Shown here piece after piece: positions 6,978 through 20,741 of a stretch of 64,000 nucleotides of DNA (its first letter is position 1; the number at the start of each line of letters is the position of its first letter). The position numbers were made by a program, and so were the translations under genes. Location: assembly GCA_031269775.1 (NCBI GenBank), contig JAISYQ010000004.1, positions 4,102 to 68,101 of the forward strand. The letters run 5' to 3'. The notes under the pieces are model-generated. The model was given only the letters and a program-made list of their open reading frames with translations, searched no databases and was not told the origin of the DNA. The DNA is from Streptococcaceae bacterium (GTDB lineage Bacteria > Bacillota > Bacilli > Lactobacillales > Streptococcaceae).

Positions 6978-7445
6978 TTAATCGCCCTTTTTTACTCGTT
7001 TGACAATATCTTCTAATTCAGATAAAAAGACCGTCATATCTTTAAATTGTCGATATACGCTAGCAAAACGAATATAAGCAATTTCATCTAAATTTACTAA
7101 CTCTTCCATCATAAATTCTCCGATTTGCGCGCTAGTTATTTCTGTTTCGCCTAATTCGTGCACACGACGTTCCACGATATCTACCATATTTTCCATTTGT
7201 TCACTTGTCACCGGCCTTTTCTCCGCTGAGCGAATTAATCCTCGCAATAATTTTTCTCGACTAAATTCTTCACGAGAATTATCCTTTTTAATAACCAATA
7301 ATGGTATCTTTTCCACTTTTTCAAAAGTTGTAAAACGATAACGACAACTTTCACACTCGCGTCGTCTACGAATGGCATGTGCATCTTCACTTTGACGGCT
7401 ATCGATAACGCGTGAGTGATTATGATTGCACTTTGGACATTTCAT
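6978..7445 (-). CDS. nrdR: Transcriptional repressor NrdR
   Basis: [17 protein letters not shown]...[17 protein letters not shown] zinc ribbon followed by an ATP-cone. Confidence 0.95.
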
Positions 7446-10078: not shown

Positions 10079-11150
10079 AGGGAGAAAAATTTAATAAATT
10101 GGCTTAAAAGTAAAAGTTGCATTTTACTTTTAAGTGTCAGTTGGATATTTATCTTTTTTAGTAATTCAACATTTGCTGTTCCTGTAACAACAAGTTATGA
10201 TCCGTGGGATGATCATGTAATAAATGGAAATGCTTGGTTTGTCGAGCAAGACGGTACTCCGTGGTGTAGGATCACATGTTCTAAAATAGTGTTGTGGGAC
10301 ATCCTTCAAAAAGCTGTGCATAGAGGAGGTGTTCCCGCGCATATTATTGTGCCTAATTTAATGAATTTTTTTGAAATAGGAGGTGGTGCACCTGCACTAC
10401 CTGTTGCAGGTCCACCAAATAATTTTGATGAAATGCTTATGGAAAATGTGTTTATAAATGGCCAAGGTAAAGTTTATAAAAAAAATTTAAATAGCTTGCC
10501 TGTAGGAAAATAGGAATGCATTCATTGCTGAGATTAGATCTTTTTTAAATACTAATAATGGACATTTGAATCCTGTTTGCCCAGCGCTAGGTGGTGGCGT
10601 TTGTAATTGTATGATGCCTCCTTAAATGTTGAATATAATTACTGCTGCAGGAAATGAGGAAAATTTGGTTGGTTTTTTCGATGCAATGATTAGTGTAAAC
10701 CCTCAGGTGGTGCCAGCTGGGACTTTAGCAACTACATGGAATGCTTTCAGTGCGATCGCACGTAATTGTCAAGGCATGTTTTTTGGCAGTTCTGAACCAG
10801 CTGTTGATCAAGAGATGAGTAATATTTGTACTGTAGGAGTGGTAAACCGGGTACTGGTTAACGCAGCAAATTCGCAAGCTTCATGGGATGCCATCCGAGA
10901 TGAGATTGTGAGACATCAGCGGATGGTCATTGTCACATTTATAAATCCAGCTAATCCTGAAGACGCTCACTGTTGTGTTGCTTTTGCTGCAGATAACGAT
11001 GTAGGAGCTGAAGCTTTATATTTATATAATCCATGGGGGAATTGGTTTAATGTTATGGGAGATAATCCTGGAATGACTCATAATATGGCCGCCATGGGAT
11101 CCCCAGCAAAGCATTGGGATATTTATCAATATATAACTTTTAATTACTAA
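10079..11150 (+). pseudogene. Disrupted secreted papain-fold cysteine-peptidase-like gene (paralogue of 19432..20082)
   Basis: An SD is followed by in-frame ATA at 10094 where a start codon is expected; there is no ATG/GTG/TTG before the signal-peptide-like KSKSCILLLSVSWIFIFFSNSTFA. Frameshift at the A-run near 10506-10513. In-frame TAA at 10623-10625. Motifs GTPWCRITC and AHCCVAF...LYLYNPWG parallel GSKWCVRAC and DHACITYG...IEVYDPMPG of the intact copy. Confidence 0.6.
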
Positions 11151-11211: not shown

Positions 11212-12016
11212 ATGAAAAAATTTTTTACGGGGTTAATATTAAGTTGTGTAGCAGTGTTTAGTTTTAGTGTCGTAGGTCATTGTATGACTCAACAAACAAT
11301 GGATAGTATATATATATCTACGTATAAAGGAAGATAGTTGGTTTAAATCAGAAGTGGAGAAGCAAGCTCGCAGTAATAATTACATAAACTTACTAGGAAA
11401 TTGGTATCAAAAAGTAAGGGTACCTTTTAAAGCAATTGTTGTTGATAAAAAGCCAATTATAGATTCTTTTATTCCTGTCAATGCAATATTACAGAAATCA
11501 GCAAGTTTCGATTTATCCATTCCTATAGAAGATAGATTTTTTGGATCACAACAAGTAGCGTCATTTAATGTAAAGTTAAGTAAGAAAGTAGAATCAATTG
11601 AAAAAATATTAAATAAACCAAAAAAATCAAAAAAAATTTTTAAAGCAAAATTCCTGAATAGTTTTGGCGCAGAAGGAACAACATATGAAAAAGAAATAAC
11701 TATGATGGAAACAGAAGCACCGGATGTTCAACTAAATGACAAATGGGAAAGGGAGCCAAGTTTAACGATATCTGAGTTGCCGTTTAATTTGATGGAAGAT
11801 AATTTAAAAATAATCCCTATTAGTCTTAATTTTGGAGACTTTACTTGGGGTTATATATTAACACCTAGTCTTGATGCACCAGTGGAGAATGCAGTTATTT
11901 GGTTTGTTCGTGTACATCCAAGGTATGAAAATCGACGGTTTTATAACTTAAAAAGCGTTTTAGATACCCATTGGGGCATGAATGAAGCACGATATAAATC
12001 ACTTTGCCCTGCTTAA
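11212..12016 (+). pseudogene. Exported (possibly lipoprotein) partner gene, split by a frameshift in a (TA)5 repeat
   Basis: ATG 11212 encodes the signal peptide MKKFFTGLILSCVAVFSFSVV... and stops at 11335. The 220-codon body (11354..12016) is open in the next frame from 11288. The two frames overlap across (TA)5T at 11307-11317. Confidence 0.5.
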
Positions 12017-14255: not shown

Positions 14256-14297
14256 AAGCATAAAAATTAATTTTTGATATTAAATTATAAATAATTT

Positions 14298-14696
14298 ATG
14301 TTGCTTAAATTAGAAATAAAAAACAACTTCAAGAAGAGTTAGAAGGAGTAAAAAAACGGAAAAAAGCACGAGCAGTTGATTTGTATTATGAGGTATTCTG
14401 TGCAGTTTTGTATGTTTTGACGACAGGCTGCCAATGGAGGAACCTCTAATAGTAGATTTTCTCAACTGAAAAAATGTCTATTCAAGGGAAAAAATCAAAA
14501 CAATTTTTAGCTTTTCGGTCAAAGTAATCAAACGCTCAAAGCTTCATATGTTCAAAATAATTTCGAAGCGTTGGGTAGTGGGGCGAACATCTGCTGGGCT
14601 TGAAAACTATCACAGATTTTGGAAAAATTGCAAACGAACGCTGGAAAATAACAGACAATTGTGCTTCTTTGCTGGAATTGCCTTGCCATTCTTTTA
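14298..14696 (+). mobile_element. IS5-family (DUF4096 + DDE) transposase remnant, internally deleted with stops
   Basis: Translated fragments ...DLYYEVFCAVLYVLTTGCQWRNL* and ...FKIISKRWVVGRTSAGLENYHRFWKNCKRTLENNRQL... match the N- and C-terminal signatures of IS5/IS4-type transposases. Only about 0.4 kb remains. Confidence 0.65.
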
Positions 14697-14770
14697 AAAA
14701 AATTCTAGACACATTTTATGAAATCTATTGATATTTTGGTTCTTACTTTAATTTATTTTGTGTTGAAAAA

Positions 14771-14825
14771 ATGCGCAAATCTTTTTTATTTTTCTATTGA
14801 CAAACAAGAAAAGGAAGAGTATTAC
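14771..14825 (+). promoter_or_regulatory. Candidate promoter with an upstream ATGCGCAAAT motif
   Basis: ATGCGCAAAT (14771-14780), N16, TTGACA (14797-14802), N17, TATTAC (14820-14825). The same motif and spacing occur at 40281-40335 on the minus strand. Confidence 0.35.
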
Positions 14826-15047
14826 ACCCTTCAAGCGCGCTTATCTGTTGTTTTTAAAAGTTTTTGTGTAAAAAAAAATTGACAGATATTTGAAAAAAAT
14901 GCAAATTTGCACTTATTTTGTTAATTTTAAAATTATGTTGTTATTAAAAATTTTTTAGGAGATTTGGAGGTTTTGTGTTATGAAATGAATTTAAACTTTA
15001 AAAAATTCTGTTTTTATAAATAGTTTTTAAAGAAAGGGTTGATTTAT

Positions 15048-15455
15048 ATGAAAAAGGAAAAAGTTTTAAAAATAGCATTTGCTGTAGGTAGTTTAGTTAT
15101 AATGTCATTTGTAGTAAACATTGTAATTGCTCGAGGGATTCAAGAGTATCACATCATCATGCCAAGAATTGGATCTACGACCACTGGTCGTATCCACAAA
15201 GGAAATGCGACAGGTGCTGTTAATAACAATACTTCCGTTGGGAATAATTATGATATGTATACAGCCATTCGTATCGCAGATACTGGACAAGACGTAACTC
15301 CAAATACTGTCGTAGGAGCAGGGCAACGAATAGGAATTCCATACTATAATGTTCATCAAGTTGTGAATCAAGATACAACTCTAGCCGCATCAACAGCTCC
15401 GCGTGTTCTTGTTCGCGTGGAAGCCCATGGTTCTTGGAGTCCTGATTCAAATTAA
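15048..15455 (+). CDS. Small exported protein of unknown family (signal/anchor helix plus a Cys-free domain of about 105 aa)
   Basis: GAAAGGG SD 9 nt before ATG 15048. N-terminal KVLKIAFAVGSLVIMSFVVNIVIA helix. Gly/Asn/Thr/Val-rich exported part. First gene of a five-gene operon. Confidence 0.6.
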   Translation: MKKEKVLKIAFAVGSLVIMSFVVNIVIARGIQEYHIIMPRIGSTTTGRIHKGNATGAVNNNTSVGNNYDMYTAIRIADTGQDVTPNTVVGAGQRIGIPYYNVHQVVNQDTTLAASTAPRVLVRVEAHGSWSPDSN

Positions 15456-15528
15456 AACTTTATTATTTGGGGGTTTAGTTAATAACTAAATTCCCAAATA
15501 AATTGAATTGAATTGAGAGGATGTTCTA

Positions 15529-16302
15529 ATGAAAAATAATTTAATATTAGAATTTAAAAGAGGTCTCTTATCTAAAAAATTTTTTATAGCTATCTTTTTA
15601 AACTGTTTATGCCTTACTATTGGTATTTATAGCAATCGTTTGGCTTTACTAGTAGATAAGGGTCTTATACTATATTACATAGGTTATCTTCTTACACCAG
15701 GAGGAATTTTAAGTATTTTTGTTCCCATTATTGTAACTTTTCCTTTTGCTGCTTCTTTTATTGAAGATAGGGAGAAATTTTTTTTAAGAAATTTATTGAT
15801 TAGAGAATCACGTCTAAATTATTTGGTGAAAAAGTATTTGGTTACGGGTTTTTTAGGTAGTTTAGCAATTTCTTTACCACTTTTAACGTTATTGTTAGTA
15901 AATATCATCTTTTTACCAAAAGGAAATATTCAACATATAACTTCTGGCATGTCAGGAGCATTTAGTGAGGTTTATAACCATAGTCAATTAGCGTATGCAT
16001 TGCTTACGATTGCAAATGCGGCTATTTTTGGTTTTATTTATGCCAATATCGGTCTGATGATAAGTTTTTTTATTAAAAACAAAGTAGCTGCCATCATTAG
16101 TCCTTTTTTGCTCTATATATTGCCAAGTTTCTTTTTTATTTATCTTAATTTAACACCATTTGAACCTAGTTTCACTTTTCAATTTAACGGTCAGAGAGAT
16201 ATTAGATTTTTTATTATTGTTTTAGAATTTTTATTTTTACTTATCTTCTCTATTATCGCAGGTTATATCAAATTTATAAAACTAGATAAGGATGAAGTAT
16301 GA
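15529..16302 (+). CDS. Polytopic membrane protein (ABC-2-type permease-like), subunit 1
   Basis: 257 aa with about 6 hydrophobic helices. ATGA start/stop overlap with the next gene. Confidence 0.55.
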   Translation: MKNNLILEFKRGLLSKKFFIAIFLNCLCLTIGIYSNRLALLVDKGLILYYIGYLLTPGGILSIFVPIIVTFPFAASFIEDREKFFLRNLLIRESRLNYLVKKYLVTGFLGSLAISLPLLTLLLVNIIFLPKGNIQHITSGMSGAFSEVYNHSQLAYALLTIANAAIFGFIYANIGLMISFFIKNKVAAIISPFLLYILPSFFFIYLNLTPFEPSFTFQFNGQRDIRFFIIVLEFLFLLIFSIIAGYIKFIKLDKDEV

Positions 16303-17099
16303 ACTTGTTTAATAAGTACCAGTATCAATGGCAAACAGTCTCATATCTTAAAAAATATCTTTTGCTTTTAAGCATCGCTTTTTTGCAAACAACTTACCTA
16401 TATTCCGCAACTTTTTATGCAAAGGGAATTTCGCTTTCAAAAGTTTCTTTTTTAGTTTGGATATTATCTAGTTTTCAAGATATATCTACAGCAGTGCATG
16501 GTTTTCCTTTTATCTATTGTTTACTGTTAGTGATTTTATTTAAAGATCATCAGATAAATGAGCTAATTATCCAAAGATTTAACAGCTCAAAAGATATAAA
16601 ATTAAACAAATTAATGGTAATTATCTCAAATTCATTATTTTTTGTTTTAGGTATTGATTTTATATCCATTATCTTTTCATACTTTCCTTTTGGAAAATTT
16701 TTTTCCTTAACAAAAGAAGGAGATGCTTTTTTCTTTCGCAATTTCAATCAGCATTTATTATCAAATTATTCATTGGCTATACAAGTAGCGCATTCTTCTG
16801 CGCTTGCATTTTTTTATTTTGTCCTGCTGGGCCTTATATTTTGGGGAACAACAATTTTAGTAAAAAAGAAAAGTGTTGGTTTTATTGTTAATATTATTTT
16901 TATTATTATGCAAGCTGCTATTTTTAGAAAGCAAACGAAATCTTCTTTTATCTCGCCAATCAATCATTATATTTTATATCTCAACAAGAATAGAGCTGCT
17001 GCTGCTTTGTTTATGTATGATTTATTTTATTGGCTTCTTTTAATAACTGTACTAACAGTCATCATTTGGCATCTTGATAATAGAAAAGGAGTTATTTAA
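16299..17099 (+). CDS. Polytopic membrane protein, subunit 2
   Basis: 266 aa with about 6 helices. Translationally coupled on both sides (ATGA and TAATG overlaps). Confidence 0.5.
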   Translation: MNLFNKYQYQWQTVSYLKKYLLLLSIAFLQTTYLYSATFYAKGISLSKVSFLVWILSSFQDISTAVHGFPFIYCLLLVILFKDHQINELIIQRFNSSKDIKLNKLMVIISNSLFFVLGIDFISIIFSYFPFGKFFSLTKEGDAFFFRNFNQHLLSNYSLAIQVAHSSALAFFYFVLLGLIFWGTTILVKKKSVGFIVNIIFIIMQAAIFRKQTKSSFISPINHYILYLNKNRAAAALFMYDLFYWLLLITVLTVIIWHLDNRKGVI

Positions 17100-17860
17100 T
17101 GAAGAATTTTTATAACTTCTTTTGGGTTCAAATAAAAGAATTTGATCTAAAACAAATTTTTCTGGTAATTTTTCTGGCTTTTTTTAGTATTTTAGCCTCC
17201 CCAATCTTTATGCGACCAAAGCAACCATTGTCAGCCCTTTTCTTAGGATCAATTAGTGGCCCTGATTTTAAAGAAATCAGACTTGTTGAAATTTTTCAAA
17301 TTCTCCTTTTATGGACAGTGATTATTATTAATATAATGAAAAAATTTGAATTTTATGAGCAAATGAAAGAATTAATCGTTTTGCGTTTTACAAGTATCTA
17401 TAAGTGGATAATGGTTGAAACAATCAGTTTTATGATTTACGAAATTTTATTTTTATTTCTATATGTTTTATCCATTTTGCTTTTAAATTTGCTTTTTTGT
17501 CAAGGAGATTTAAATTTACTAACTACTGGTATCATTGCTTTAAAAGCATTTTCAGTATATTTTTGGGGAAGCTTATTATTGATTGTCACACTCTTCACAA
17601 GCCTTTTACTATCTCACTCAACTCAGCAAACTACGGCCATTATTTTTTTGATCATCTGCTTAAATGCATTTTCATTTCAAATTTTTGGCAAACTTTATTA
17701 TCTTTTGCCTGGGCAAATATTTTATATCGGCCGGATATTCAAGCTTACCTTTGAACAGTTGAATTTATTAATCGTTTTTACATTAAGCGAAATTAGTTTA
17801 CTTTTATTATTTTTTTGGCGAATTTTAAAAAAGCATGATCTATATTTAATTGAAGAATAA
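17099..17860 (+). CDS. Polytopic membrane protein, subunit 3
   Basis: 253 aa with about 6 helices. The ATPase gene starts 9 nt downstream. Confidence 0.5.
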   Translation: MKNFYNFFWVQIKEFDLKQIFLVIFLAFFSILASPIFMRPKQPLSALFLGSISGPDFKEIRLVEIFQILLLWTVIIINIMKKFEFYEQMKELIVLRFTSIYKWIMVETISFMIYEILFLFLYVLSILLLNLLFCQGDLNLLTTGIIALKAFSVYFWGSLLLIVTLFTSLLLSHSTQQTTAIIFLIICLNAFSFQIFGKLYYLLPGQIFYIGRIFKLTFEQLNLLIVFTLSEISLLLLFFWRILKKHDLYLIEE

Positions 17861-17869
17861 GGAGATAAG

Positions 17870-18523
17870 ATGAGAAAGACTATCGAATTAAAAAATGTTG
17901 CGAAGTCATTTAAAAAACAAGAAATTTTGAAAAATATAAATTTTTCCTGTTTTAGAGGAGAGATTATTGGTATCGTTGGGGTTAATGGCTCTGGGAAAAG
18001 CGTTTTATTTAAGGTGATTTCCGGATTACTATTCCCAGATAAGGGTTCTGTTACCATCATGCAAGAAGAAATTACAAAGTCCCAAAAAATTCCTCAAGCT
18101 CTTTCTGCCTTAATTGAAGAACCTGGATTTTTACCTAATCTTACCGGTTATCAAAATTTAGAACTGTTAGCTAGTATTCGCAGGAAAATTACCAAAGAAG
18201 ATATTTTAGATACTTTGCGTACAGTTAGGCTTTTTGAAGATCGAAATAAAAAAACCAAGCACTATTCTCTTGGAATGAAGAAAAAGCTTGGAATAGCTCA
18301 GGCGATTATGGAGAAACCTAAAATTATTCTTTTAGATGAGCCGATGAATGCCTTAGATAAGAAAAGTGTTGAGGATATGAGAAATTTGTTTTTAAATTTG
18401 GCTAAAGATGAAAAAGTGACCATCGTGATTGCTAGTCATAATTTAGATGATATTAATCTACTTTGTGATAAGGTTTATCAGCTTAAAATTGGTCAGTTGG
18501 CTGAAAAAGAGAATAGTTATTAA
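17870..18523 (+). CDS. ABC transporter ATP-binding protein (short, ABC-2/immunity type)
   Basis: Walker A GVNGSGKS, signature SLGMKKKLG, Walker B ILLDEP, H-loop ASHN. Confidence 0.9.
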   Translation: MRKTIELKNVAKSFKKQEILKNINFSCFRGEIIGIVGVNGSGKSVLFKVISGLLFPDKGSVTIMQEEITKSQKIPQALSALIEEPGFLPNLTGYQNLELLASIRRKITKEDILDTLRTVRLFEDRNKKTKHYSLGMKKKLGIAQAIMEKPKIILLDEPMNALDKKSVEDMRNLFLNLAKDEKVTIVIASHNLDDINLLCDKVYQLKIGQLAEKENSY

Positions 18524-18712
18524 AATTTTTTTATGATGGATGGCGTGAAGTTAAAAAACAAGGTTTGTATATAGCAAACTTTATAATTTTAAATTGCTCA
18601 AATTTTGATTTCTTCATTTAGCTAGAACGTTCTAAGAGCCTATCTACTTATTTTTGAGCAACGAAATTTTTTGATAATTTTGTTGCAAGAAATAGCAAAC
18701 AGACTCTTAAAA
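18085..18712. repeat. Direct repeat copy 1 (3' half of the ABC ATPase gene plus a downstream MITE-like unit)
   Basis: Near-identical by eye to 20224..20741. This copy carries about 105 extra bp between the stop codon and the MITE-like unit. That unit (18632-18710) has imperfect terminal inverted repeats TAAGAGCCTATCT / AAACAGACTCTTA. Confidence 0.8.
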
Positions 18713-18747
18713 ATTTTTTATTTATGAGTAATATACTTTTGATAAAG

Positions 18748-19407
18748 TCAAGCAACTTCACACTGGCAATCTCTATTAATAACATTCATTATACTTAATT
18801 TATTGCTAGTGTATACACCTTTTCCTACGTCTTGTCCTTTTAGGAGTAAAATTAAAATATTACTTTCTTGCTCTGAAACTACTTGATTTAACATATTTAA
18901 ATCTTCTATAAAAGATAATGATTCAGAAGGTTCATGCAAAAAATATTGAGTATCAACCTTCTCTGAAAAAATCAGAAAATTATTAACATTAACACCTCCA
19001 AAAACTAACAATTGAGCAACATCAATTAGATAAAGAGAACAATGATTAGGTTGAGCTGATAATGAAGCTTCGCATACTACCTTATGAGTAGTTGTATCGA
19101 TTATCGGAACGCAAATAAAAATTTCGTCTACTTCCTTCTTATAATTTAGGCAAACCGTATATAACATATGGGTACTATCTACTACTAGTCCCTCACGTGA
19201 TATGCCGGGATTAGCTATTTCCCACAATGATGTAAAATCATTTTCTTCAAAGCTTATCTTACTTTTAAGAAGATCTTGTACAATTGGATTTTTAACAAAT
19301 CTTAAATCCGTTACAGAAATAAAACCTGCGCTAACTAGCAATGTATTACTATTAATACACAGAAACAAAAAACATAAACAAACAAAAAATTTTTTTATAA
19401 CTTTCAT
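18748..19407 (-). CDS. Exported protein of unknown function (partner of the peptidase-like gene)
   Basis: AAGGAGGAG SD. Signal peptide MKVIKKFFVCLCFLFLCINSNTLLVSA. Starts 24 nt after the upstream gene's stop. Confidence 0.6.
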   Translation of the reverse strand: MKVIKKFFVCLCFLFLCINSNTLLVSAGFISVTDLRFVKNPIVQDLLKSKISFEENDFTSLWEIANPGISREGLVVDSTHMLYTVCLNYKKEVDEIFICVPIIDTTTHKVVCEASLSAQPNHCSLYLIDVAQLLVFGGVNVNNFLIFSEKVDTQYFLHEPSESLSFIEDLNMLNQVVSEQESNILILLLKGQDVGKGVYTSNKLSIMNVINRDCQCEVA

Positions 19408-19431
19408 GAATATTCTCCTCCTTTTATATAA

Positions 19432-20082
19432 TCACCATTGAATTAAACAGTATTCTGAAAGATTTCTGGGAACTCCACTAACCACCAAATAACGAAAAGC
19501 GTTACGAGTACAATTAAACACTTTCCTGCCAGGCATAGGATCATACACTTCTATGCTATTTGCATTAACTCCGTACGTTATGCAAGCATGATCAACATGT
19601 GGCGGCGCTTCAAAATGCAATATAGCAATGCCTGGCCTTACACCACCACCTCCTGTAAGAACATTATGAATTTCATTATAAGCTTGTTGAATAGATTTTG
19701 TAGGAGTAATGGCATGACGTGTACAGATAATTTGTGAATGATTACAAGAAAAGTGGCTAATCTCAGCCTTAATTTGATGAAATGCCATAGTAATTTCCAA
19801 ATTAGTCCCTGTTGCAATTAATCCAGGGCGAATTTGTCCATGACCAGGACCAATTGTACCATTATTTTGAAGAACTTGTAAGTAACTCAATGCAACGTCT
19901 GTACATGCACGTACACACCATTTAGAGCCTGCTGGCTGCTTTATTGCACCGGGACCCGTAACGAATTGCTCAATCCCAGGTAATGGATTAGCATTAATAG
20001 AAATACCATTTACAAAAAAAACAATAAATAAAAATGAACTTAAAACCCATTTGTGAATATTGAATAACTTTATTATAACCAT
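19432..20082 (-). CDS. Secreted papain-fold cysteine-peptidase-like protein (C39_2/C70-like pattern)
   Basis: AAGGAG SD and a signal peptide (...FLFIVFFVNGISINA). Candidate nucleophile in GSKWCVRAC. Candidate His/Asp in PHVDHACITYGVNANSIEVYDPMPG. Family is inferred from motif pattern only. Confidence 0.55.
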   Translation of the reverse strand: MVIIKLFNIHKWVLSSFLFIVFFVNGISINANPLPGIEQFVTGPGAIKQPAGSKWCVRACTDVALSYLQVLQNNGTIGPGHGQIRPGLIATGTNLEITMAFHQIKAEISHFSCNHSQIICTRHAITPTKSIQQAYNEIHNVLTGGGGVRPGIAILHFEAPPHVDHACITYGVNANSIEVYDPMPGRKVFNCTRNAFRYLVVSGVPRNLSEYCLIQW

Positions 20083-20159
20083 TTCCCATCTCCTTATAAC
20101 TTTATTACAATTAAATAGCTTATAATCTCAGTTTATTTATTACTTATAAAACTAAATTC

Positions 20160-20187
20160 AGTATAGCACTTTGTAAAAAATTATCAA
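20160..20187 (-). promoter_or_regulatory. Candidate sigma-A promoter for the peptidase/partner operon
   Basis: Read on the minus strand: TTGATA (20187-20182), 16 nt spacer ending in TGc (extended -10), TATACT (20165-20160). Confidence 0.4.
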
Positions 20188-20223
20188 TGCCTAACTTTTC
20201 GCAAATAATTGTTATACAAAATC

Positions 20224-20741
20224 AAGAAAAATCTCTCAAGAATTGTCAGCTTTAATTGAAGAACCGGGCTTTTTACCTAATCTTACCGGTTATCAAAATT
20301 TAGAACTGTTAGCTAGTATTCGCAGGAAAATTACCAAAGAAGATATTTTAGATACTTTGCGTACAGTTAGGCTTTTTGAGGATCGGAATAAAAAAACCAA
20401 GCACTATTCTCTTGGAATGAAAAAAAAGCTTGGAATAGCTCAGGCGATTATGGAGAAACCTGAAATTATTCTTTTAGATGAGCCGATGAATGCCTTAGAT
20501 AAGAAAAGTGTTGAGGATATGAGAAATTTGTTTTTAAATTTGGCTAAAGATGAAAAAGTTACCATCGTGATTGCTAGTCATAATTTAGAAGATATTAATT
20601 TGCTCTGTGATAGAGTCTATCAGCTAAACAATGGACAATTGAGTAAAGCTAATTGAAAATTTTTTAGAGTTTGTCTACTTATCTTTGAGCAGTGAAATTT
20701 TTTGATAACTTTGTTGCAAGAAGTAACAAACAGGTTCTAAA
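20224..20741. repeat. Direct repeat copy 2 (truncated ABC ATPase 3' half plus MITE-like unit)
   Basis: Aligns with 18085..18712. The MITE-like unit lies at 20668-20741 (TTAGAGTTTGTCT ... AAACAGGTTCTAA). Confidence 0.8.
20243..20656 (+). pseudogene. 5'-truncated ABC ATPase (no Walker A), paralogue of 17870..18523
   Basis: The 137-codon ORF is almost identical to residues ~79-214 of the intact ATPase and retains only the signature, Walker B and H-loop. No N-terminal half is present upstream. Confidence 0.85.

Follow-up and report, generated by a model that had tools for sequence, protein, structure and literature searches.

The 64,000-nucleotide stretch of DNA analysed here (the window) comes from the metagenome-assembled genome (MAG) of an uncultured member of the Streptococcaceae and carries on its minus strand two adjacent genes, A and B, deposited as hypothetical proteins (LBS28_00370 and LBS28_00365). 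Based on its modelled structure, we conclude that A probably represents a new, very rare and distant family of clan CA peptidases, which is C39-like by sequence hints and has the staphopains as its best structural matches. Together the two genes appear to form a small, horizontally mobile operon, and the products of both are predicted to be exported. By analogy with known pairs of protease and inhibitor, we tentatively propose, with a confidence just short of an even chance, that B serves A as a cognate inhibitor or immunity factor outside the cell. Both open reading frames (ORFs) had been pointed out in a sequence-only reading of the region, and they are present on the minus strand together with the two motifs it had named in A, GSKWCVRAC and PHVDHACITYGVNANSIEVYDPMPG, the 24-nucleotide (nt) gap between the genes and the strong Shine-Dalgarno sequence before B:

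19432..20082, minus strand: gene A, a predicted exported papain-fold clan CA cysteine peptidase of 216 amino acids (aa), called from the ORF, the AlphaFold2 (AF2) model and Foldseek; signal peptide about residues 1-31, putative oxyanion Gln49, putative catalytic Cys56, His165 and Asp181
20090..20095, minus strand: strong Shine-Dalgarno sequence of gene A, AAGGAG, 7 nt before the ATG, read from the sequence
18748..19407, minus strand: gene B, the predicted exported partner of 219 aa; signal peptide about residues 1-27
19415..19424, minus strand: Shine-Dalgarno sequence of gene B, AAAGGAGGAG, 7 nt before the ATG and within the A-B spacer
20160..20187, minus strand: promoter-like site by consensus match, with a -35 TTGATA, a 16-nt spacer and an extended -10 TG-n-TATACT

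The AF2 model of A has a predicted local distance difference test (pLDDT) value of 77.7 and a predicted template modelling (TM) score of 0.77. In this model, Cys56 is the first residue of the helix 56-73, His165 opens the strand 165-172, and Asp181, 16 residues further on, lies just after the strand 177-180. A Foldseek comparison of the model against the PDB revealed almost only papain-fold enzymes among the top 30 matches. The best match is staphopain B (1pxv_A) with an E value of 1e-4, a probability of 1.0 and TM-scores of 0.43/0.49; staphopain A follows with an E value of 9e-4, and the TM-scores of the staphopains range from 0.43 to 0.54. Other matches are papain-like CdiA-CT toxins, a Cpe1-type toxin/immunity pair (9l5u), the C39 domains of PCAT1 and ComA, and the C70 enzyme AvrRpt2. 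The assignment of A to the papain fold, with C39 and C70 as the suggested types, is supported at the level of the model, the matches being clan CA peptidases that include C39, C70 and C47. In a library of viral structures the best match is an uncharacterised Mimivirus protein (E = 3.7e-5), and the next ones are a Gordonia phage endolysin and then mycobacteriophage Lysin A. The fold as modelled would not separate a protease from a cell-wall amidase or other papain-fold chemistry.

Residue conservation was read from an alignment of 15 A sequences that covers two subfamilies, a short one of about 216-260 aa and a long one of 316-363 aa, in which an insert of about 100-140 aa separates the Cys helix from the His strand. 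Cys56 is invariant in all 15 sequences, and the residues invariant across both subfamilies are Q49, S53, W55, C56, C60, D62, H165, A166, G171, P182 and P184. At the position of Asp181 the long subfamily has Asn, the swap predicted for the third catalytic residue of a papain-type enzyme, which supports A as a papain-type peptidase. The invariant Gln49 lies 7 residues before Cys56; in papain and ComA the oxyanion Gln lies 6 residues before the Cys. In addition, 5 of the 15 family members have sub-threshold matches to Peptidase_C39_2 (PF13529), the best of them scoring 19.2 and 18.4 bits against a gathering threshold of 24 bits. These matches are co-linear, the Cys region covering model positions 11-44 and the His region 85-142. 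The A protein of the window itself has no match to Peptidase_C39_2 at E <= 10, and neither Pfam nor NCBIfam gave any match to it even at E = 10. A search of PHROGs with A and B returned nothing meaningful, and a PDB sequence search with the A profile gave chance matches only (designed helical proteins). A classical C39 leader peptidase was considered for A and rejected, as there is no transporter fusion and no Gly-Gly substrate nearby.

The family is very small: among 5.8 billion cluster representatives, a word-indexed search detected 10 A proteins, and a full search of 1.84 billion representatives with a hidden Markov model (HMM) found 14. All named sources are Lactobacillales MAGs, including the only two A loci found among 185,579 scanned species genomes, and the naming of the MAGs suggests that the hosts are termite gut bacteria. 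Scans of JGI metagenome contigs and IMG/VR with profile-derived patterns gave no relatives of A, nor did tblastn against plasmids and phages. One N-terminally truncated member, P0019 (253 aa), clusters by sequence with the long subfamily. The signal peptide of the long-subfamily protein P0014 (MKRAIKAIIASIFITCLNISYVTA) is nearly identical to that of the short-subfamily proteins P0005 and P0007, whose mature parts are much more diverged from it; this hints at mosaic evolution by recombination.

Export of both proteins had been part of the sequence-only reading, and the signal peptides, called by inspection, hold up across the homologues. The N-termini of A keep the basic n-region and the hydrophobic h-region of a signal peptide, followed by a cleavage site of the AXA type, and the partners likewise share a conserved n-h-c signal peptide of the signal peptidase I type with an AXA site. 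An A-like gene in a phage-like region (P0019; L018 4890-6344, with Phage_Gp15 and terminase) has no signal peptide, a stop codon lying 20 codons upstream of YPEIAPFV, the conserved start of the mature part; its B-like neighbour has a full signal peptide if an upstream ATG is used. The predicted cleavage site of A (after Ala31) is only about 25 residues away from Cys56, so that A has no prodomain. Therefore, latency of the enzyme would need a factor acting in trans.

The pairing of the two genes was examined by reading the DNA downstream of every A homologue. A predicted exported B-like gene lies 3' of A in 13 of 13 distinct loci of both subfamilies, namely the window, L004, L003, L001 (where B is split), L006-8, L009, L019, L020, L011, L014, L016, L018 and L010, the B-like gene of the last being cut by the contig end. 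That the pair recurs as a unit was therefore correctly anticipated. The spacers measure 9-66 nt overall; those of the short subfamily measure 24-30 nt and contain a conserved AAGGAG. Intact ORF lengths are kept over the 13 loci (25-80% identity), at about 216-363 aa for A and about 171-280 aa for B. Within the subfamilies the partners are clearly homologous (E = 2e-24 to 1e-100), and between the subfamilies homology can still be detected (E = 6e-6). The pairwise identities of A and B are correlated with r of about 0.8, a purely descriptive figure since the pairs are not independent. Within the short subfamily B diverges faster, with a mean identity of 45% for B against 60% for A. The order is reversed between the long-subfamily loci L014 and L016 (A 49% and B 70% identical), which could come from recombination within the cassette or from episodic selection on A. 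In L001, a perfect 25-nt tandem duplication at 7077-7126 (attgaagttcgcttatctgatgtta twice) frameshifts B after residue 132 and leaves A intact.

Protein B has no domain match in Pfam or NCBIfam, even at E = 10, and a PDB sequence search with its profile gave chance matches only (the SleC pro-region, E = 0.12). The word-indexed search found three B-type proteins only. An AF2 model built from 3 sequences reached a pLDDT of 37, at which a Foldseek comparison is meaningless. The partners share a D-x-R-[FLY]-[VI] motif 5-12 residues past the signal cleavage site, a beta-rich core and a Q-Y-x-L-N motif, and their acidic, poorly conserved C-terminal part often ends in C-E-E-E. The mature length of B is about 190 residues. 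A lipoprotein was rejected for B, as the Cys residues of its signal peptide stand outside a lipobox context and the AXA site is conserved; inspection of the sequence showed no obvious lipobox, LPXTG motif or C-terminal transmembrane segment as a surface anchor.

The scan of the region found no terminator-like site between A and B, and we infer that the two genes share one transcript. The promoter-like site upstream of A has 10 of 12 consensus matches with the TG present and is the top-scoring one of the region. Its -35 and TG/-10 elements are 100% conserved in the sister MAG (locus L004). However, this AT-rich region holds 11 promoter-like sites where 13.5 are expected, which is no enrichment over chance. 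Therefore, the extended -10 promoter ascribed to the pair is the best site available but is graded as plausible and unproven. In L004, 67 nt are deleted between the -10 and the Shine-Dalgarno sequence of A (window 20099-20165 against L004 3286-3290) at a TATA microhomology, and the -10 now abuts the Shine-Dalgarno sequence; the deletion may alter the expression of A there.

At deep divergence, the ratio of non-synonymous to synonymous substitution rates (dN/dS) is 0.22-0.39 for A and 0.26-0.62 for B. Since homologues at this depth are under purifying selection, the comparison confirms that A and B are real genes. Between the window and the sister MAG, the closest comparison, A shows 50 non-synonymous and 6 synonymous changes with a dN/dS of 2.4 (p = 0.025 against neutrality), while B has a dN/dS of 0.67 and the flanking genes have values of 0.09-0.29. 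Nucleotide identity is similar across the block, so the excess in A is specifically one of amino-acid-changing substitutions.

In the proposed scheme, A would leave the cell by the Sec route as a prodomain-less papain-fold cysteine peptidase, and B, made from the same transcript, would be exported as well. Outside the producer cell, B would bind A and block the enzyme, either keeping the protease latent or shielding the producer's own envelope. Free A would then act on an external target, which might be the cell wall or proteins of competitors, or host or phage proteins. The grounds for this scheme are the gene order, the need for a latency factor in an enzyme without prodomain, the fast evolution of B, and precedents. 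Secreted papain-fold proteases with a co-transcribed specific inhibitor are known as staphopain/staphostatin and SpeB/Spi. Further precedents are, above all, the Bacteroides C10 proteases with their exported staphostatin-like Bfi/Bti (PMC3462683), and also the potempins (PMC9890683) and the effector-immunity pairs with a papain fold (PMC12136450). The binding and inhibition of A by B, the identity of the substrate and antagonism as the purpose of the pair are what we infer from these grounds.

Several findings weigh against this proposal. The structural matches of A have modest TM-scores of 0.4-0.55, and the dN/dS above 1 for A is based on a single sequence pair. Protein B has neither domain matches nor a usable model, and its mature form is almost twice the size of staphostatins, Bfi/Bti and potempins. 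Without an obvious surface anchor B would be freely released, which makes it ill suited to protect its producer alone. In addition, the intact A next to the broken B of L001 indicates that A is not obviously lethal without full-length B, of which the N-terminal 132 residues remain. A more far-reaching version, unlikely in our judgement, would make the pair the first example of a contact-independent antagonistic system of Gram-positive gut bacteria. Here a Sec-secreted protease or cell-wall peptidase toxin would be released with its co-secreted immunity protein as a latent, colicin-like heterodimer, spread by prophages and by islands that RelB/YoeB modules stabilise, and diversified through an arms race against competitors in the gut, probably that of termites. 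Nuclease colicins are released as such latent heterodimers.

The linkage and co-divergence of A and B would fit an enzyme and its substrate equally well. In that case A would be a maturation protease that cuts the exported pro-protein B to release a toxin, an adhesin or a signal, or that trims the N-terminal D-x-R-F-V segment or the acidic tail of B. The position of the B motif shortly past the cleavage site and the poorly conserved, probably disordered C-terminal half agree with this, as does the fact that C39 relatives are leader-peptide processing enzymes. As a precedent, the secreted cysteine protease fragipain is reported to activate co-resident toxins (PMC8406203). However, the B alignment contains no conserved Gly-Gly or other recognisable cleavage motif, and B has no toxin, adhesin or pheromone domain. 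A locus that keeps A and truncates B (L001) would be odd if B were the payload, and the dN/dS excess is on A rather than on B. We consider a substrate role for B an unlikely alternative. The absence of a prodomain bears on another possibility, that B is an extracellular foldase, a trans-acting prodomain or a surface-retention factor for the maturation of A. Papain-fold proteases usually need a prodomain to fold, and the gene order, the tight translational coupling and the co-divergence are all compatible with such a helper. Against it, B evolves fast with a dN/dS of 0.67, which is unusual for a chaperone, it has no similarity to A or to known propeptides, and A stays intact where B is truncated (L001), so that we regard a helper role as distinctly unlikely.

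The loci surrounding the pair point to mobility. RelB/YoeB, a toxin-antitoxin module, lies directly upstream of the pair in L003 (124-692), L006-8 (L006 2458-2971) and L009 (3-706), and near it in L001 (9663-10093) and L014 (5646-5888). The module is thus next to or near the pair in most of the unrelated contexts, which suggests either that an addiction module keeps the pair stable as its cargo or that A-B and RelB/YoeB move together as a four-gene unit. In L001 the pair adjoins a prophage structural module, in L018 the whole region is phage-like, and other neighbours are an IS200-type transposase in L010, ParA in L003 and SSB in L016. The GC content of gene A in the window is 40% against a background of about 30%.

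In the window, the cassette is flanked by direct repeats of about 0.6 kb. The two parts of the repeat are 94% identical (18073-18372 against 20215-20514) and 83% identical (18630-18710 against 20661-20741). The unique DNA between the repeats, 18711-20214, holds exactly the promoter-like site, A and B, in full agreement with the sequence-only reading. The repeats derive from an ATP-binding cassette (ABC) ATPase gene of the neighbouring operon, and the features of the block are as follows:

15029..20741, no strand: block of about 5.7 kb carrying the cassette, in different genomic contexts in two MAGs, from synteny with L004 2801-8384
15039-15455: predicted exported protein of 138 aa, first gene of the ABC operon, no family match
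15529-17860: three polytopic membrane proteins
17870-18523, plus strand: LanF-like ABC ATPase, a separate protein of 217 aa, ABC_tran match
18073..18710, plus strand: left direct repeat, comprising the 3' two-thirds of the intact ABC ATPase gene (17870-18523; ABC_tran match) and downstream sequence
20215..20741, plus strand: right direct repeat, comprising an orphan 3' fragment of the same ABC ATPase gene (ORF 20243-20656) and downstream sequence

This footprint would fit a single-crossover (Campbell-type) integration of a circular DNA that carried the cassette and a homologous ABC fragment. The same arrangement is found in an independently assembled MAG, Cc175_bin59 (L004/L012), which rules out an assembly artefact. 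Synteny between the window and L004 is restricted to window 15029-20741 and the flanks differ between the two MAGs; therefore, the block behaves as an island. Rfam and tRNA scans of window 8-23 kb were empty, so there is no tRNA-type integration site in that range. Between engB and the island lies a stretch of about 0.8 kb (14256-15038) in which all ORFs are short and overlap and the Rfam and tRNA scans gave no match; it may be the decayed junction of the island.

The best match of the 17870-18523 ATPase is to lantibiotic-protection ABC subunits, below the cut-off, and the island is possibly a bacteriocin or immunity-type transporter cluster. The A-B pair is convergent with this operon. In L006-8, the pair is convergent with a cluster of radical-SAM/SPASM, PqqD, ABC ATPase and ABC-2 permease genes (L006 4972-7914), which is probably a cluster for a ribosomally synthesised and post-translationally modified peptide (RiPP). 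It encodes a Cys-containing peptide of 41-44 aa (MFTVKKIYCSPVVETSMQGKYIAVSEEIVPALSVLKCDPPCQRV) and has no peptidase of its own. One could read from this that the bacteriocin-like or RiPP products encoded nearby are matured by A, as an extracellular processing or leader peptidase, and that B is an accessory; the functional unit would then be the larger cluster that includes the adjacent ABC exporter or immunity transporter. The LanF-like operon starting with an exported 138-aa protein, the co-movement of the block in two MAGs, the peptidase-free cluster of L006-8 and the C39 leader peptidases among the relatives of A speak for it. But the association is not general, as no such cluster adjoins the pair in L001, L003, L009, L014, L016 and L018. 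The pair also lies on the opposite strand with its own putative promoter, and no double-glycine leader was seen in the neighbouring peptides. We therefore hold this role of A to be very unlikely.

A second, decayed copy of the same architecture had been claimed at 10.0-12.0 kb, where it lies between tig and clpX, and the claim stands for its first half only:

10094..11150, plus strand: pseudogene of a distant, long-subfamily A-like peptidase, from HMM score and motifs; the N-part (10094-10513) has a signal peptide and GTPWCRITC, with no start codon before 10289, and the C-part (10626-11150), after a stop and in another frame, has DAHCCVAF...LYLYNPW
11212..12016 (11212-11337 and 11354-12016), plus strand: frameshifted, predicted exported ORF in the position of B

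The ORF at 10.6 kb gave no match to A in plain BLASTP or hhalign. The frame-rebuilt pseudogene scores 16.6-18.7 bits against the HMM of the long A subfamily, as compared with at most 5.0 bits in 2000 shuffles. The ORF at 11212-12016 has no detectable homology to the B family. The architecture therefore recurs, with homology shown for its A part only. The presence of a pseudogene copy in the same genome raises the question whether A and B are evolutionary debris, two hypothetical ORFs unrelated to each other and at present without function in a mobile element that is decaying. The broken B of L001, the A-like gene without a signal peptide in L018, the 67-nt deletion of L004 and the high dN/dS of the closest comparison could be taken in the same sense. 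However, A and B are intact ORFs in 13 loci over 25-80% identity, with a dN/dS of 0.2-0.4 at depth, the catalytic residues are invariant, and the Shine-Dalgarno sequence and spacing are conserved. The value of 2.4 also exceeds the neutral value instead of equalling it, and we find debris scarcely credible as an explanation.

In agreement with the claim that no described system matches the pair, no Pfam, NCBIfam, PHROG or PDB-sequence match was obtained, and no paper describing an A-B system was found in the literature searchable here. The analysis adds two protein families without current annotation, A with the signature WCVxxC...HAC...[DN]P and B as an exported D-x-R-F-V protein. If B neutralises A, the pair would be a prodomain-less secreted papain-fold protease checked by a co-exported partner of a new family. 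The known Gram-positive examples, staphostatins and Spi, act inside the cytoplasm, and the solution would then differ from theirs. The mobility, the frequent toxin-antitoxin linkage and the non-synonymous excess point to microbial conflict or host interaction in a poorly studied gut community. Practical work is limited by the uncultured hosts and by fewer than 30 known sequences.

Systems in which a secreted cysteine protease has its own co-transcribed partner are known. What we rate as new is the combination of a C39-like enzyme without a prodomain, predicted export of both partners by the Sec route in a Gram-positive bacterium, a partner family without known relatives, and a mobile cargo linked to toxin-antitoxin modules. 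Peptidases C39 and C39_2 (the bacteriocin-processing domains of PCAT1, ComA and LahT, and stand-alone C39-like proteins) share with A the order Gln...Cys...His...Asp, with structural matches and co-linear sub-threshold sequence matches. The His-Asp spacing of ComA is 16, the same as in A. The family scores of 18-19 bits fall under the 24-bit Pfam cut-off of Peptidase_C39_2. Classical C39 is a cytoplasmic N-terminal domain of an ABC exporter that cuts Gly-Gly leaders, whereas A is stand-alone and predicted to be Sec-exported, the neighbouring ABC ATPase is a separate protein, and no Gly-Gly leader was seen nearby.

In effector-immunity pairs (Cpe1-Cpi1, 9l5u; CdiA-CT/CdiI, 8ssm; Tae/Tai) a toxin gene is followed directly by its cognate partner. 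The gene order and the co-divergence of A and B would fit such a pair, and there are structural matches to A. The papain-fold pairs among them are likewise mobile, patchily distributed and fast-evolving, and Tai-type immunity proteins are exported, as B is predicted to be. However, papain-fold effector toxins are delivered in Gram-negatives by type VI secretion systems (T6SS) or contact-dependent growth inhibition (CDI), and many have cytoplasmic targets; Cpe1, for example, cleaves GyrB and ParE (PMC12136450). No T6SS, type VII secretion/LXG, CDI or Rhs genes lie beside the pair in the loci read, and A has a Sec-type signal peptide only.

The staphopain-staphostatin operons (scpA-scpB and sspB-sspC; C47) are similar to A-B in that the gene of a secreted papain-fold protease is followed directly by that of its own partner, with co-transcription, which is likely for A-B. 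Staphopains B and A are the best structural matches of A, and the partner or inhibitor families diverge fast in both systems. Nevertheless, PDB sequence searches with the A and B profiles showed no sequence similarity between the two systems. A lacks the large N-terminal prodomain of the staphopains. Staphostatins are cytoplasmic beta-barrels of about 105-110 aa without a signal peptide (PMC3462683), whereas B has 219 aa and a conserved signal peptide with an AXA site. In the C10 proteases Bfp/Btp of Bacteroides with Bfi/Bti, the protease and the co-transcribed partner both carry export signals (PMC3462683), as predicted for A and B. Bfp/Btp are C10 (SpeB-like) lipoprotein zymogens with propeptides in the Gram-negative periplasm, in contrast to the prodomain-less, C39-like A of a Gram-positive bacterium, and Bfi/Bti, with 116-138 aa, are smaller than B and unrelated to it in sequence. 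The Bacteroides C10 proteases with Bfi/Bti are the nearest precedent for an exported inhibitor.

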